Of a stretch of DNA of 61,615 nt, positions 23,201 through 29,200 are shown in pieces. The DNA lies in the NCBI GenBank assembly GCA_051009015.1, contig JBPCWZ010000010.1, positions 1 to 61,615 on the forward strand. Reading direction: 5' to 3'. Position numbers and translations under genes: made by a program. Positions within the stretch are counted from its first letter, which is position 1, and each line of letters begins with the position of its first letter. The notes under the pieces are model-generated. The model saw only the letters and a program-made list of their open reading frames with translations, made no database searches and was not told where the DNA came from. The DNA comes from Gammaproteobacteria bacterium (lineage in GTDB: Bacteria; Pseudomonadota; Gammaproteobacteria; Tethybacterales; Persebacteraceae).

Positions 23201-26200
23201 GGTGTTTGTCTGGGCGGTTACGGCGGAGGGCGCAGCCCCGGTTCGCGATACCGAAACCCCGCTGACGATTATCAACGCCCCGCCGAGGATTACGCTGATT
23301 GGCGGCGCGAGTTTGCGGGATGCTCTCACGCTTAGCGTCAATGGCGGCAGGGCGGCGGAGTTTAGCGGCAGGATAAGGGACAACCCCACGCACGAAGGGA
23401 ACGGGGCATTGGCAATATCCCCCAGGGGCGTGGTAGGAAGCGGCGATGCTATCGGGGATGTGGAGGATGCACTTGATATCACGGCGGTCATCGCCGCCGC
23501 ATCGCTGACGGCATTTGCGACTATCAGCGTTTCTATCACCCGCATTTTGCCGCTCATTACCGCCGACTATGAAGGCGTGCGCATCGTGCCGCTCAATGTG
23601 TCAAACATTCTCCTCGGCGCAATGGTGCCGATAACCACCGGTATTCTGCGGCTTTATCACCGCCCCGAAAACGCGTCCGGCCTCCGCTATGGGCACAGCA
23701 TTGTTGCATCGCCGTCCGGTTTTGCCATTGACGATATTAGCGGCGCGCTTTCTTTGATATCGGCTTATGAAACGGCAACGATGCAAACCATAACGCTCCG
23801 GACCAAATACGCCAATGGCTTCGGCAACGGCGAGCAGGCATCCGTTACCCTGACAATATCCGCCGCCGGTGATGCCGATGGATTCCCGTCGCTTTCGGTT
23901 TCTTACACCCTCCGCGGGGGCATTGTGCCGGGCGGGGTTTTTGCGCCGGTTGCGGATGTTTCGGCATCGGGCGGTTTTGCATCGGGCGGATACCGCCTGA
24001 GTGTTTTGCCGCAAAGCAACTTGTCGGTATCTTTGCCTTCGGTGCTTGCCGCCGATGGCGATGCGTTGTTGCAAGTGAGCGCCGTTGCCGGGGCGTTTTC
24101 GGTTACCGTTGTTGTTCACGACCTTGCCAATATCACCGCATCGGCGGTTGTTTCCATTTCCATCACCCCGCGCGATTCTCTGCTGCCGTTTGTCGTAACC
24201 GGCATTGCCGTATCCGTCACCATCGGCGACGGCAGTTTGATAACGATATCAACATTGGGCGTTTCCGGCGGCGCGGGCAACAACCGCTTTTCGTTATTGG
24301 AAGATGTTAACTATCTTTCGCTAAACGCCGACGGCACTTTGCATGCCCGCGCCGGTTTTGACGCCGTGCGCAACAATATCGCCCGCCCGCGCCAAACCGT
24401 TGGCATTGAAGTATTCAGCAACGGATTGCGGGCGACGGCATCGCTAACCGCCGCTTTGGTCTTTGCCCCGCTTTCGGTTGCCATCGCCGACCCCGGCGAG
24501 TTGGCGGCACTTGTCGGGGGGACGGTAACGCTCTTTTCGCTCGCCCTTTCCGGCGGCGCCGGTGATGTCGCCAACGGCGGCTTTGCGCGCGGTTATGACA
24601 TTTCTTTGATGGCGGATGCCGCCGGCGGGTTTGGCGCATCATCGGGCTTTGTCATCGCCGCCGCGCGCACAAGCGGGCTATTTACCGCAACCATCGTTGC
24701 CAATGACCGGCTGGACGGCGCGGCGTATCCGCCTTCGCCCGCAGGGTCGGCTTTTGTTACCATTACCGCTTTTCAGCCGCTCAGCGCGCATTTGCCGGCG
24801 GAAGTATTCGCCACTTCGGGATTCAACATTGCCGGCACGGTGTCGGCAAGCGGCGGCGGCGGGGAATATTCCTATTCGGCTGGCGTTGACCCGGCGCTTG
24901 GCAATGTTAGAGGCGTGGGCGAAGACGGCGAGATTTCTTTGGGTGTCCTTTTCCCTAATGTCATCTTTTCCCTGACCGCCGTTGTCAATGACGCACTTAC
25001 CGTTACGCCGCCGGCAACGGCGATTATGGCGGTGCGCGCGGTGGCATTGGGTGCTTTTGCAGACCATGCCGAGGGTATTGTGCTGACGACATACCGCGCT
25101 TTTGACGCCCGTCTGGCGACTGTGGGTGTGGATATCGGCTTGCCGCCCTTCCGCTATTCCATCCTTTCGCCCGGTCCGGTTTCTTTGCTTGAAGGCACGA
25201 TTGTCGTTGTCGCCGAAACTTTGACCGCCCCCGGCAGTTTGGCGATTACCTTGCAAGTGAGCGACAGTTCGCCGATAACGGATCCGTTTGTTTATGACTT
25301 TACGATATCCGTTGTTGATCCTTCGCCCCTGTCGCTTGATGCCATCGTCAATGATTCGGTGATTGACGGCTTTGCCATGACGCTGGCGACTATCGCCATC
25401 GGCGGCGGCTTGTTGTCGGACGGCAGTGCATACAGCGTTACCGTTACCGACGGGCAGTTTGGACTTGTCGGCAATACGCTGACGATGTTTGCAACGGCGG
25501 CGGGCAGTATTACGGTGACCATCCTCGCCGATGACGACCATGCCAATACGCCGCGATTGACCGGTTTGATAAGCGCTTTTGTTATTGACCGAAACACGCT
25601 TTTGCCGCCGTTTGTCGCCATTGACCGGAGTGTTTGGAATGTCCGGGTTGGCGATGCGCCGTTTGTCGCTACCGCCGATGCCCAAGGCGGCTTTGCGCCC
25701 TACCGGATGGAGTTGCAAGGCGAAGGGGCGGTTGGCTTGGCGCAGGATTTGACGCCGGGCTTTGGCATTAGCATTATCAGCGGCGGGCGGGCGGTGATAT
25801 CCGTCCTGCCGCCTTCGGTGCTGGAACTGACCGGCACTATCAACGCCGTTTTGCGGGTTGCCGATTTTGTGGATAACGCTTCGCTGCTAACGCTTTCTTT
25901 GATAGTGGAAGCGCCGACTTTGGATGCCGAAGTGTTTTTGTTCGGCGGGCAGCGTTTTGGCGACAATGTCAATATCGCCGCATCGCCGACTGTCTATGCC
26001 GCGGCGCGCGGCAACTTGAGTTTGTGGCTGCCGATAGCGGCTGTGCCGCAAATGGCGCTGATTCATCATCGCGCCGCGCACATAAACGGCACTTTGGTTG
26101 TCGTCGGCGGGCTTTTGCAAAACGGCGGCTTGCAAAGCCGCGTGTTGTGGTCTGCCGACAGGGGGCGCAGTTGGCAGCATTATGATGCGCCGTTTTCGCC

Positions 26201-29200
26201 CCGCCGCGATGTCGGGCTGGCTGTTCATAGCGGCGCGTTGTGGGTGATGGGCGGTTTTGACGGCGCGGCAAATGACGAGTTGTGGCGCTCGCGCGACGTC
26301 GGCGGCGGCGCATCTTCGTGGCAGCGGCAGATTGACCGGCAGGAACCGCGCATTGAAGCATTGACCGACCATAATCTATTGACTTATCGCGGCACTTTGA
26401 TGATCCCCGGCGGGCGCAATGCCGATGGCGGGCGGCGGGCATGGTTTTATGACGACAACGGCGATTGGACGAGCATTCGCCCGCCCCTGCCCGATGCGCC
26501 AAACAGCGGCGCGGCGGCGGTGTTGGATGACAAGTTATATTTGTTCGGCTTGGAAAGCAAAGCGCATAATGTCTATGTTTATGGCGGCGGCAACTATGCC
26601 AACGATTGGTCGTCATGCGCCAATTTGGCGATAACCATCGGCGAATATGCCAGCGGCATCGTCATAGACGGGACGATAAACATACTCGGCGGCGGCGACC
26701 GGCAGGTGCGGCGTTTGACCGGCTGCCCGCCCGCCATCCCCGGCGGCGGGCAAATGCCGCAAAATACCGAATACAATGCCCGCGCCGTTTATATGCCGCT
26801 TGCGCCGGAAGTTGTTGTGCCGCCGCCTGTAATGCGGGCGTCTTTTGCGGCGATGCCGGTTTCGCGCTTGCGCGGTGAAGTTGTCCTCGGCACCGTCATC
26901 GCCGAAGGCGGCAGTGCGCCAAACGGCTATCGCATGCGCGCTTTTGCCGCCGATGCCGCCATCGGCGTCAATACCGAAAACGCCCTGACGATGTTTGCCG
27001 ATGGTTTGACTTCGTTTCTGGCGACGGTTGTTGTTGATGACGAGCATCCGGCGACCGAATATGCTACCGTCATTTTGACGGCGCGGGTGATAGATTTTGT
27101 CGTCCTTGCCGCTCCCGATGTCATTACCATTCCGGCAGGCCTGACGGCGACCGGCGTACTGGCGACTTTGCGGGCGGCGGGCGGCGGCGGCAACTTCCGC
27201 TATACGGCGGCAAATGCCCCCGGTTATGTTGTCGTCGCCGAAGACGGGCTTCTTATCATGCGCGGGACTTCGTCCGCCGATGCTACGACCCTTGTCATTA
27301 CCGCTTTGGCGCGCGGGGCGCTTGCCAATACGGCGGGCGAAGATTCCGCTTTTGGCATTGCTACCGCGCCGATATCTCTGGCGGTTGTGGAGTCGGAAGA
27401 TTTTTCGTTAAGTGTCAATCGTGCCGCTAACGCTGTTTTGGCGGTCGGCGGTCGGCAACTGACGGCGGCGACTGTGCGGTTGCTCGGCGGCTTTGCCTTT
27501 GGCGGGGCGTATTCGGCAAATGTGTCGGTTGCCGGAGAAAACAATGACGAAGGTTTTGCCGCCGCATTGCTTCCGGTTGAAGGCGGCGGCGGCGGGGTTT
27601 TTGCCGTTGTTTTGTCGGCTTCGGTTGCCGGAAGTATTACGGCGGTTTTTGCCGCCGATGATTCCCATCCGCAAACGCCGCCGGTTTCGGCAACCATTAC
27701 CGCCTATGCCGCCGATTCTTTGCGCCTTGACATTTCGCCGCTGACGATAACCACTTTGCTGCCGGTCGGTGCCGATGCCGCCATTTTTGCCGGAGGCGGC
27801 GTTGGCGATGTGCGCTTTTCGCTGTCGTCTTCATTGTTGTCCATTGACGCCGCAAGCGGGGCATTGGCATGGGCGAATGCGCCCGCCGATATCCCGCAAC
27901 TGCACGAGGTGCAAGTGCGGGTGTCGGATTCTTCGCAGCCGCCGTTTTCGCGCCTTGCCGGTTTGACTGTTGCCATTGTTGACCCGCCTTCTTTGACAGT
28001 TCGCCTGTTGCGCCCGCGCTTGAATGTTTTGGAAGGGAATGCTACTTTGGGCGAGGTCAGCATTGCCGGAGGTTATGCACCGGAGGGGTATTCTTTGACC
28101 GTCATCCACGAAGGGGAGGATGCGCAAGTTGGCTTTATCGGCACAACCATTACGATGTTTGCCCGCCCCGCTCTTATCACGGCAACGGCAATTGCCGATG
28201 ACGAACACGGCAATACCCCGGCGGCGAGTTTGTTTATTACCGCGCGCATTGTTGAGAGTTTCACGCTTTCGGTTGCGCCGGTGTATTTGCCGGTATCCAT
28301 AACGGCAATTGATATTGTGCTGGCGACTTTGCGTCCCGGCGGTATTTCCGGCGATTACACAATATCCATTGACGCGCCGCCGTATTTGAAGTTGTCGGGC
28401 GATATTCTGCTATTGGACGGGCAAACGCCTTTGCAAACCGGGGCATTTTCGCTTATCGCCACGGTATCAAGCGCGGCGGCAACGGTAGCGGCAACGGCAT
28501 CGGTCTTTATTGTCAATCGTCCGGTATTTGCCAACATTGTCGGCGGGCTGGATTATGTCTATGCCCGAACCAAATCCACCGTCGGCATTGTCGCCGGGCA
28601 GGGCGGCTTTGTCTTCCCCGGCGGTGCTTTGCGCTACCGGCTTTCGTCCGCCGCCGACCTCGCCGCCGGTTTGGATTCTCTGCAAGCGGTAACCGTATCG
28701 GCAAACAAAGCGGGGCAATATCATTTGACGGCGGCGGTCAATGATGATTCATCGCGCCCGCCGGTGCTGTTGACGATGACTTTTGACGCGCTGGCGGAAC
28801 TGAGTTTGCGCGCCCTCGGCGATGACGGCATTTTGACGATAACCACCCATTCGGCATCGCCGGGCTATTACATGCAACTGAGCGCCTTTGGCGGCGGCGG
28901 CACGCTGACTTTTGCGGTAGCCGACAGCGGCGGGCTTTTTGCCATCGGCGATGACGCCGCTGACCCGTCTTTGACCGTTGCGCGCGAATCGCGCTTGCTT
29001 TCGGTGCTTTTGACGGCGGAAGTGCCAAATGCCATTACGACAACCGCCGAGTTTCATCTCCATCACAGCGCGCCTTTGGCGCTTGAACCGGCGACAATAT
29101 TCTTTACTCTTGCGGTTGTGGATGTGCTGCCGTTTAGTGTCGGCTTTGGCGAAAGCCCGGGGTTGATATCTTCGCAGGTTTCGCTCACGCTGGCTTCCAT

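Follow-up and report, generated by a model that had tools for sequence, protein, structure and literature searches.

The question raised by this locus is what a globular domain is doing far inside a very long bacterial stalk. The stretch of DNA that we analyzed, called the window, comprises 61,615 nucleotides (nt) of contig JBPCWZ010000010.1 (assembly GCA_051009015.1) from a gammaproteobacterium of the family Persebacteraceae (order Tethybacterales). Most of it is occupied by one giant gene, which leaves the window at its end and whose predicted product is a fiber of immunoglobulin (Ig)-like modules. An earlier reading made from the sequence alone (the sequence-only reading) had placed a six-bladed, Kelch/BNR-like beta-propeller about 4,900 residues into this stalk, at positions 25932-26730, with normal modules on both sides. 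We found that the element is a six-bladed Kelch propeller lying between two modules of the giant fiber, and we regard this assignment of structure and architecture as nearly certain. The fuller account that we favor, in which a propeller of a distinct Kelch subfamily sits in the passenger of a type Ve autotransporter and acts as a ligand-binding head mounted on the side of the fiber, is in our view probably right, with ample room for doubt.

The segment is a Kelch-repeat propeller by profile match, by motif, by predicted fold and by the closure of its ring. The Pfam family Kelch_1 (PF01344) matched with 31.6-32.7 bits, against a cutoff of 20.1. Two models of the whole domain gave expect values (E) of 1e-9 yet remained below their cutoffs (Kelch_KLHDC2, 37.8 vs 50; ATRN-LZTR1, 32 vs 50). 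Six units of the hydrophobic strand plus GG type follow one another along the segment (EVFLFGG, LVVVGG, LWVMGG, LMIPGG, LYLFGL and INILGGG), and in an alignment of 12 copies of the family (alignment A1) residues G23, G24, G71, W99, W148 and W197 are invariant or nearly invariant. A sequence search of the PDB returned designed six-bladed Kelch proteins (E 1.7e-16), followed by KLHL2/3/12/20 and Keap1. The FG-GAP family, which had also been named as a candidate, gave no match at E ≤ 1 in the Pfam scan.

We used alignment A1 to build an AlphaFold model of the propeller. The model had a predicted local distance difference test score (pLDDT) of 79 and a predicted template modeling score (pTM) of 0.82, and its 25 strands were grouped as five complete four-stranded blades and a sixth drawn from both ends of the chain. 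By strand order, what is left over after the five full blades is a closing blade made of N-terminal strands B-D and C-terminal strand A. Foldseek superimposed the model on the Kelch domains of KLHL17, SAKe and Keap1 (E 3e-17, template modeling score (TM) 0.73/0.81, the latter relative to the target). Neither of the outcomes that the sequence-only reading had named as fatal to its proposal, the lack of any propeller family match and a predicted fold of another kind, was obtained, and its six Kelch-like blades are borne out by the Kelch_1, PDB, AlphaFold and Foldseek results alike. The proposed depth is also correct, the segment pointed out being residues 4967-5233 of the open frame, about 4,913 residues from the ATG. 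The coordinates given are nearly right; the right boundary falls short by about 65 nt, as the last strand (residues 5248-5255) carries the domain to about 26795.

The Asp-box that had been noticed in the segment, SADRGRSW, is canonical, lies in a hairpin of blade 1 in the model and is invariant in the 12 copies. It is the only match to the strict pattern S.D.G..W in the 16,861 residues of the frame. Where blade 3 has FYDDNGDW, relatives show SADGxNW, and the blade best kept in comparison with the ortholog P0004, described below, is blade 2 (84%), in which R137 and W148 lie. As a description, "Kelch/BNR-like" is apt for the Kelch blades and the Asp-box, but membership in the BNR or sialidase families did not hold, since BNR (PF02012), BNR_2 and Sialidase (PF13088) gave no match at E ≤ 1.

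The Asp-box is nonetheless a hallmark motif of sialidases, and its invariance among the copies would suit an enzyme tethered at a set distance from the cell surface, such as a NanM-like mutarotase of sialic acid or a glycosidase of the sialidase kind. Weak matches to NANM (PF24996) in 6 of the 12 copies (best E 4.7e-6) and three word-index matches of about 30% identity annotated "N-acetylneuraminic acid mutarotase" lean the same way. The matches to NANM, however, scored 23-26 bits against a cutoff of 45 and covered profile positions 2-74 of 350, and the NCBIfam models of NanM were further still from their cutoffs (NF010730, 21.6 vs 416 bits; TIGR03547, 20 vs 256). The strict Asp-box occurs once per propeller, vs once per blade in sialidases, and the closest structural matches are protein-binding Kelch domains. 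With these results and the missing BNR and Sialidase matches, we consider a tethered enzyme quite unlikely.

The predicted host protein is an inverse autotransporter (type Ve) by the layout of its barrel and passenger, as read from sequence. The plus strand is open without interruption from 11031 to 61613, the end of both window and contig, which amounts to 16,861 codons or 50.6 kb. The likely translation start is the ATG at 11193, and the gene call in a sister contig begins there too; this contig (CCXVMS010000008.1, NCBI GCA_973515615.1) is 99.8% identical to the window, and its copy of the gene also leaves the contig end. The residues that follow the ATG form a probable signal peptide, judged by eye from the translation. 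The inverse autotransporter barrel family IAT_beta matched residues 159-379, counted from the ATG, with 63-64 bits against a cutoff of 22.3 (E 2e-17). A Pfam scan of the protein in 17 chunks of about 1,000 residues each returned only IAT_beta, Kelch families and a single sub-threshold match to He_PIG. To our knowledge, the protein is several times longer than characterized inverse autotransporters.

Because self-comparison by BLAST was too insensitive for modules that are only about 20% identical, we replaced it with a module hidden Markov model (HMM) iterated on the giant protein itself. This HMM found 116 modules of about 95 residues each downstream of the barrel. The propeller is flanked on both sides by normal modules, as had been claimed, and both are complete (residues 4858-4960 and 5263-5353; Table 1). 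The downstream one was modeled, from 55 aligned modules, as a seven-strand beta-sandwich (pLDDT 92.6) with a weak Foldseek match to cadherin EC and Ig-like domains (E 0.02, TM about 0.5). The 55-module profile likewise gave weak matches to Ig-like decoration proteins, filamin and protocadherins (E 4e-5 to 1). No Pfam Ig or cadherin family exceeded its cutoff over the 16.8 thousand residues, He_PIG reaching 23.4 vs 24 once and Big_9 15.4 vs 23.6. The modules are Ig-like at the level of the fold and belong to no curated Ig family, so that the "Ig-like stalk" of the sequence-only reading stands in the first sense and fails in the second. Their identity to one another is about 20% across the array, which argues that the array is ancient and did not arise by tandem expansion in recent times.

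We identified relatives by an exhaustive search of 1.8 billion representatives. A word-index homolog search with the propeller had returned only the three weak NanM-like matches mentioned above, and with alignment A1 only P0108. When the propeller was used to scan GTDB species genomes and JGI metagenomes, no orthologous locus came up, and the matches were to distant Kelch proteins that shared at most 45% identity with part of this query. The exhaustive search yielded P0004, a 1,043-residue fragment of an ortholog that belongs to a 90% cluster of four sequences on ENA contigs. It consists of six modules, a propeller and two modules, with the same junctions as in the window. It is 67% identical to the giant protein overall and 68% in the propeller; five upstream modules are 35-60% identical and the two downstream modules 68-69%, with 60% for the module immediately upstream and 68% for the one immediately downstream.

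Other relatives carry the same type of propeller more than once. P0005, a complete gene of 7,134 codons on a Logan contig, is 47% identical to the giant protein over 545 residues of the N-terminus, barrel included. It has five internal propellers with 2-8 modules between them and 11 modules after the last, and contains five Asp-boxes and exactly 10 cysteines for these five propellers. Two propellers are present in the fragment P0006 and two in P0020, where they follow an N-terminal stretch that appears by eye to be ankyrin-rich and where a single module follows the second copy. P0071 has one, at its C-terminus (residues 523-887 of 894). Apart from the ortholog pair, the 12 copies are 21-45% identical pairwise, and Kelch_1 or Kelch_6 matched 10 of them. 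The S, D, G and W of the Asp-box, R137, W148, W197 and two cysteines are invariant in all 12, and relatives of the subfamily have one Asp-box and two cysteines per propeller. As judged from this alignment, the propeller is a member of a small, unnamed Kelch subfamily marked by one Asp-box and an invariant cysteine pair.

A wider class of metagenomic proteins (P0008, P0013, P0014, P0017, P0022, P0023, P0041 and others; 4,300-7,800 residues) combines 5-10 Kelch propellers with 23-43 matches to the module HMM per protein. Neither these proteins nor the relatives described above have been given protein names. A propeller follows every 1-9 modules, a spacing much denser than in the giant protein. 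These propellers lack the cysteine pair, and the strict Asp-box is found only in P0014 (three). Where the N-terminus is present, it has a signal peptide and about 120-140 residues that match neither modules nor propeller. P0014 (7,798 residues, ten propellers) is encoded at 4001-27397 of L025, a 2.58-Mb contig, among ordinary housekeeping genes. The same contig also bears P0277, of the P0013 cluster, so that one genome can hold several such giants.

Ankyrin repeats occur in the company of some of these propellers. Upstream of P0005 (L024 283-1615) there are a small ankyrin-repeat gene and a separate gene of 296 residues with IAT_beta only, and P0020 and P0071 both have N-terminal regions that look ankyrin-like by eye. 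This company hints at a host- or partner-associated lifestyle.

The relatives bear directly on whether the locus could be an artefact, a Kelch gene misjoined into a repeat-rich contig or wrongly called. The assembly is fragile here, in that the gene leaves the contig end in two assemblies, and small indels separate these assemblies, although elsewhere than in the giant gene. The frame, however, is unbroken over 50.6 kb, both module/propeller junctions recur in P0004, on separate contigs of ENA metagenome assemblies and at 60-68% identity, and P0005 has five such pairs of junctions within one complete gene. We give an artefact next to no credence. Two further candidates were tried and rejected. 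One was a recent horizontal insertion: GC content, GC content at third codon positions and codon usage of the propeller are all within the spread of the gene (codon L1 distance 0.47 vs a null of 0.40 ± 0.09), and this composition is ordinary. The other was an antisense gene: minus-strand open reading frames at 25887-26372 and 25969-26616 lie inside the conserved coding region and were taken as incidental. Incidental reverse-strand frames are frequent in GC-rich coding DNA.

The sequence-only reading had called a propeller in mid-stalk unusual, but internal copies are the rule among the relatives (five in P0005, two in P0006 and 5-10 in the wider class). It had also suggested that the propeller might be a relic, the former distal tip of a shorter adhesin that was internalized by the addition of modules or by fusion with a downstream adhesin and that needs no present function. 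The same type of propeller is terminal, or nearly so, in some relatives (P0071 and the second copy of P0020). Such copies imply that a propeller of this type is able to work as a tip. No feature marks the copy in the giant protein as a fossil. Identity between modules stays at about 19-22% from block to block, with no break at the propeller, and the best partners of the modules adjacent to the propeller lie across it. In GC content and codon usage, the propeller does not stand out from the rest of the gene. Conservation in the ortholog is no lower for the propeller than for its flanks, and scaffold residues, Asp-box and cysteine pair are all intact there. The repeated internal copies, up to ten in P0014, also speak against a stranded tip. 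Module similarity, codon usage and ortholog conservation thus lend the relic no support, and we hold it to be improbable.

The remaining suggestion, a lateral binding site, stays the best functional reading, argued by analogy and from the predicted fold. That the propeller functions as a lateral head for a ligand, putatively a glycan or protein on a partner surface, seems to us somewhat probable, if only by a little. In the mechanism that we propose, the N-terminal barrel would be seated in the outer membrane and the fiber would extend from the cell toward the C-terminus. The propeller, which shares its reading frame with the complete cadherin/Ig-like module on either side of it in the passenger, would form a knob on the side of the fiber about 42-45 modules from the membrane, a distance of about 150-200 nm if each module spans about 4 nm. 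Because the closing blade combines three N-terminal strands with the last C-terminal strand, the points at which the chain enters and leaves the propeller would be neighbors on a single face, to which the Asp-box and the A-B and C-D loops also belong. On this face, strand A ends next to where strand B starts in the four-stranded meander that is canonical for Kelch domains. The B-C and D-A loops make up the other face, which would be directed away from the stalk.

In characterized Kelch domains (Keap1 and KLHL proteins), the B-C/D-A face is the one that contacts ligand or substrate. Among the 12 copies, the B-C and D-A loops have a mean pairwise identity of 0.21 and hold 71 of the 123 insertion columns; mean identity is 0.42 in the A-B and C-D loops and 0.36 in the strands. 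It is this variability of the B-C/D-A face among copies that leads us to think of the propeller as a lateral ligand-binding head. The cysteine pair would probably form a disulfide in the periplasm or outside the cell, and relatives with 2-10 heads would be multivalent adhesins of a "beads-on-a-string" kind.

Several points weigh against a lateral binding head. The binding role is argued from likeness to other Kelch domains. Most propeller families combine a conserved scaffold with top loops that vary; such loops agree with binding and are no proof of it. Confidence in the model is moderate in blades 3-5, with pLDDT values of 64-89 by block. How close the termini lie, which way the faces point and how far apart the cysteines are were all deduced from canonical Kelch topology; by this topology, Cys 5196 and Cys 5232 may be on different faces, too far apart for a disulfide. 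Finally, the giant protein shows only one propeller over 16,861 residues, in contrast to its multi-head relatives; the 3' end of the gene is missing. Both BLAST and the family profile detected no second copy of the propeller within the frame.

The compactness of the propeller and its conserved cysteine pair could also serve a structural or assembly role. The propeller would then be a disulfide-locked knot that prevents the passenger from sliding back during secretion, or a node of fiber-fiber self-association in bundling or cell-cell aggregation. A passenger of at least 16,000 residues is extraordinarily long, and propellers every 1-9 modules in relatives are as expected of nodes for folding or association that are set at intervals. 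A lone copy over 16,861 residues, however, is too little for a periodic ratchet, and variation in the loops of the top face is easier to reconcile with diversified partners than with a structural role that is the same throughout. Self-association moreover counts as binding too, so that this alternative overlaps with the binding head. We think a structural or assembly role unlikely.

A bolder generalization of the binding-head proposal, to which we attach only a small chance, is that Kelch heads with an Asp-box and a cysteine pair make up a class of surface-fiber heads not described before, strung at intervals along cadherin-like stalks in type Ve and related giant adhesins of uncultured Pseudomonadota, and that these heads bind along the length of the fiber as well as at its tip, each tuned to a different glycan or protein. 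In the giant protein, the propeller would then be a single, depth-specific contact point or a tethered carbohydrate-active enzyme.

Table 1. Positions of the propeller, its parts, its neighbors and the other features of the giant gene. Positions are those of the window; amino acid (aa) and Cys numbers are those of the open frame.
Feature	Position	Strand	Basis
Giant gene, host of the propeller	11193..61613	+	at least 16,807 codons from ATG 11193; stop-free to window and contig end
Putative signal peptide (MPLFRLAVSRWRLSAGAVLILLMALSA followed by EG)	11193..11273	+	judged by eye from translation
Inverse autotransporter beta-barrel (Pfam IAT_beta, PF11924), N-terminal outer-membrane anchor	11667..12329	+	Pfam match
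Cys pair, aa 647/662	12969-13016	+	Cys count of frame
Cys pair, aa 2215/2243	17673-17759	+	Cys count of frame
Complete cadherin/Ig-like module just upstream of propeller, aa 4858-4960	25602..25910	+	HMM positions 4-86 of 90
Six-bladed Kelch-type beta-propeller, aa 4967-5255	25929..26795	+	Kelch_1, PDB matches, AlphaFold, Foldseek
Closing blade, three N-terminal strands B, C, D (starts EVFLFGG)	25929..26042	+	DSSP strands 18-25, 38-43, 46-55
Blade 1 (LVVVGG ... SADRGRSW)	26070..26186	+	DSSP strands 65-69, 72-76, 88-92, 100-103
Asp-box SADRGRSW, aa 5041-5048, C-D hairpin of blade 1	26151..26174	+	motif and model
Blade 2 (LWVMGG ... WRSRD...SSW)	26214..26327	+	DSSP strands 113-150
Blade 3 (LMIPGG ... 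FYDDNGDW, degenerate Asp-box)	26379..26474	+	DSSP strands 168-199
Blade 4 (LYLFGL ... NDWSS)	26511..26615	+	DSSP strands 212-246
Invariant Cys 5196, first of pair, just past strand D of blade 4	26616..26618	+	column C247, alignment A1
Blade 5 (INILGGG ... VRRLTGCPP)	26649..26753	+	DSSP strands 258-292
Invariant Cys 5232, second of pair, C-D loop of blade 5	26724..26726	+	column C283, alignment A1
C-terminal strand RAVYMPLA, aa 5248-5255, "velcro" closure of closing blade	26772..26795	+	DSSP strand 299-306
Short proline-rich linker PEVVVPP to next module	26796..26816	+	translation; between last strand and module match
Complete cadherin/Ig-like module just downstream, aa 5263-5353	26817..27089	+	HMM positions 1-90 of 90, 57 bits
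Cys pair, aa 7291/7333	32901-33029	+	Cys count of frame
Cys pair, aa 12657/12659 (CxC)	48999-49007	+	Cys count of frame
Cys pair, aa 16592/16595 (CxxC)	60804-60815	+	Cys count of frame

The sequence-only reading had recommended a search of the rest of the gene for further inserts that are not Ig-like, and this search turned up both module-free stretches and cysteine pairs, without any Pfam match. The frame contains 13 cysteines; one is upstream of the likely start and the other twelve form six close pairs (Table 1). All six pairs are outside every detected module, and five of them are within stretches of more than 100 residues without a match to the module HMM. Paired cysteines in an exported protein point, as far as sequence goes, to disulfides, or to metal sites in the case of CxC and CxxC. 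The five pairs beyond the propeller, four of them in long module-free stretches, mark further non-Ig inserts, which are probably disulfide-bonded or metal-binding. Nine larger module-free stretches gave no Pfam match.

Two of the module-free stretches, residues 6225-6569 (29703-30737, no cysteine pair) and 7041-7401 (32151-33233, with the pair 7291/7333), have a homologous segment of about 190 residues in common (29% identity, E 7e-7), which by its sequence is a second recurring type of insert. Stretches of 350-520 residues at 43797-45356, 48432-49481 and 52689-54101 had no detected match to the module HMM or to Pfam. In the distal half of the protein, modules alternate with gaps of about 100 residues, a pattern that suggests a second, divergent type of module. 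A second iterated HMM, intended for such a "type-2" module in these gaps, was given up because it drifted toward the main family of modules.

We also noted features of the window outside the giant gene. All differences between the window and the sister contig are at 7-2780 and 8298, and the giant gene is free of them. In the region 1647-3278 on the minus strand, especially at 2734-2754, the window is 4 nt shorter than the sister contig; a gene of 543 codons with a DAHP_synth_1 match, which is whole in the sister contig, is there split into two reading frames, by either an assembly error or a strain-level frameshift. The GrpE gene (7357-8619, minus strand) is unusually long, encoding 420 residues vs about 165 for the GrpE domain, and its N-terminal extension has an internal DNA repeat with a 66-nt offset and about 85% identity near 8119-8389. 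About 7 kb before the giant gene, a XerC/D-type tyrosine recombinase (Phage_integrase, E 3e-47; 3313-4212, plus strand) adjoins the dnaK-dnaJ-grpE cluster. DnaK shares about 70% identity with that of Gammaproteobacteria MAGs and about 66% with that of Nitrosomonadales-type betaproteobacteria, which places the organism in an uncultured lineage of Pseudomonadota. The top named DnaK match, from "Betaproteobacteria bacterium FACS189488", was rejected as a sign of a close relative, being a double-HSP70 protein of 952 residues in another gene neighborhood.

In textbook fibrillar adhesins, the stalk is a passive spacer and binding takes place at the tip only. Here, a recognizable domain of a binding type lies inside the stalk of an inverse autotransporter, and relatives have up to ten copies of it. 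If the propellers bind ligands, such fibers would be multivalent along their length, which would change how reach, avidity and mechanics are modeled. Kelch/Asp-box propellers would also join the bacterial adhesive domains, and current domain-based searches for adhesins omit them. A further question is how export and folding proceed for a passenger of 16,000 residues or more that is anchored by a barrel and contains a globular, probably disulfide-bonded propeller.

Among known propellers, the closest in both sequence and structure are the BTB-Kelch proteins (Keap1, KLHL2/3/12/17/20) and the designed SAKe proteins, although identity in the structural alignments is only 16-20%. Like them, the propeller has six four-stranded blades with the repeat of hydrophobic strand, GG and W, and a C-terminal strand that joins the N-terminal strands to close the ring. 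Unlike BTB-Kelch proteins, it is bacterial and predicted to be extracellular, has an Asp-box and a cysteine pair, and is flanked by Ig-like modules instead of BTB and BACK. NanM/YjhT, a periplasmic sialic-acid mutarotase, resembles it in being a bacterial, exported six-bladed Kelch propeller, and both the weak profile matches and the nearest annotated homologs are to this family; NanM, however, is a free-standing enzyme of about 350-390 residues, whereas the propeller of the giant protein is a module of a fiber and scores far below the NanM cutoffs. With Asp-box (BNR) propellers (sialidases, Sortilin/Vps10 and GH74), it shares the S-x-D-x-G-x-x-W hairpin between strands C and D, and the match to Sortilin-Vps10 was weak (E 0.008-0.03). 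It differs from them in its Kelch-type blades and in having one strict Asp-box, with degenerate ones in blades 2-3, where BNR propellers have an Asp-box in most blades.

The host protein is built like intimin, invasin and YeeJ: an IAT_beta barrel occupies the N-terminal part, and the passenger that extends from it toward the C-terminus consists of tandem beta-sandwiches. Characterized inverse autotransporters have a few hundred to a few thousand residues, Big_1 or Big_2 domains and a lectin-like tip at the C-terminus. The giant protein departs from them in its passenger of at least 16,000 residues, in modules that belong to no Pfam Big family and in the Kelch propeller inside the array. RTX adhesins (MpIBP, FrhA, LapA and SiiE) likewise use long arrays of Ig/cadherin-like extenders to display binding domains that are not repeats. 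They are, however, substrates of type 1 secretion with binding domains clustered near the distal end, whereas the giant protein would be anchored by an IAT barrel, and its propeller is far from both visible ends, between two complete modules. Some RTX adhesins have binding domains inserted in a split extender domain.

In the library of papers searched, none joins inverse autotransporters to Kelch domains or puts a propeller into a passenger of this kind, and those that mention inverse autotransporters together with passenger and propeller contain no account of such a layout. Propeller heads strung along Ig-like fibers are a recurrent architecture for which we found no published description. 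Surveys of fibrillar adhesins name neither Kelch nor propellers (PMC8286594, PMC9210967), and one of them reports that adhesive domains in Proteobacteria are distributed fairly evenly along the protein (PMC8286594). The arrangement in the window also resembles that of the wider class (P0008, P0013, P0014, P0017, P0022, P0023 and P0041), in which the same family of modules is interspersed with Kelch propellers. The nearest described analogue of a layout of propeller and cadherin-like repeats is BapP, a probable adhesin of a type 1 secretion system that has a five-bladed propeller at its N-terminus together with cadherin-like and BIg repeats (PMC12153261).

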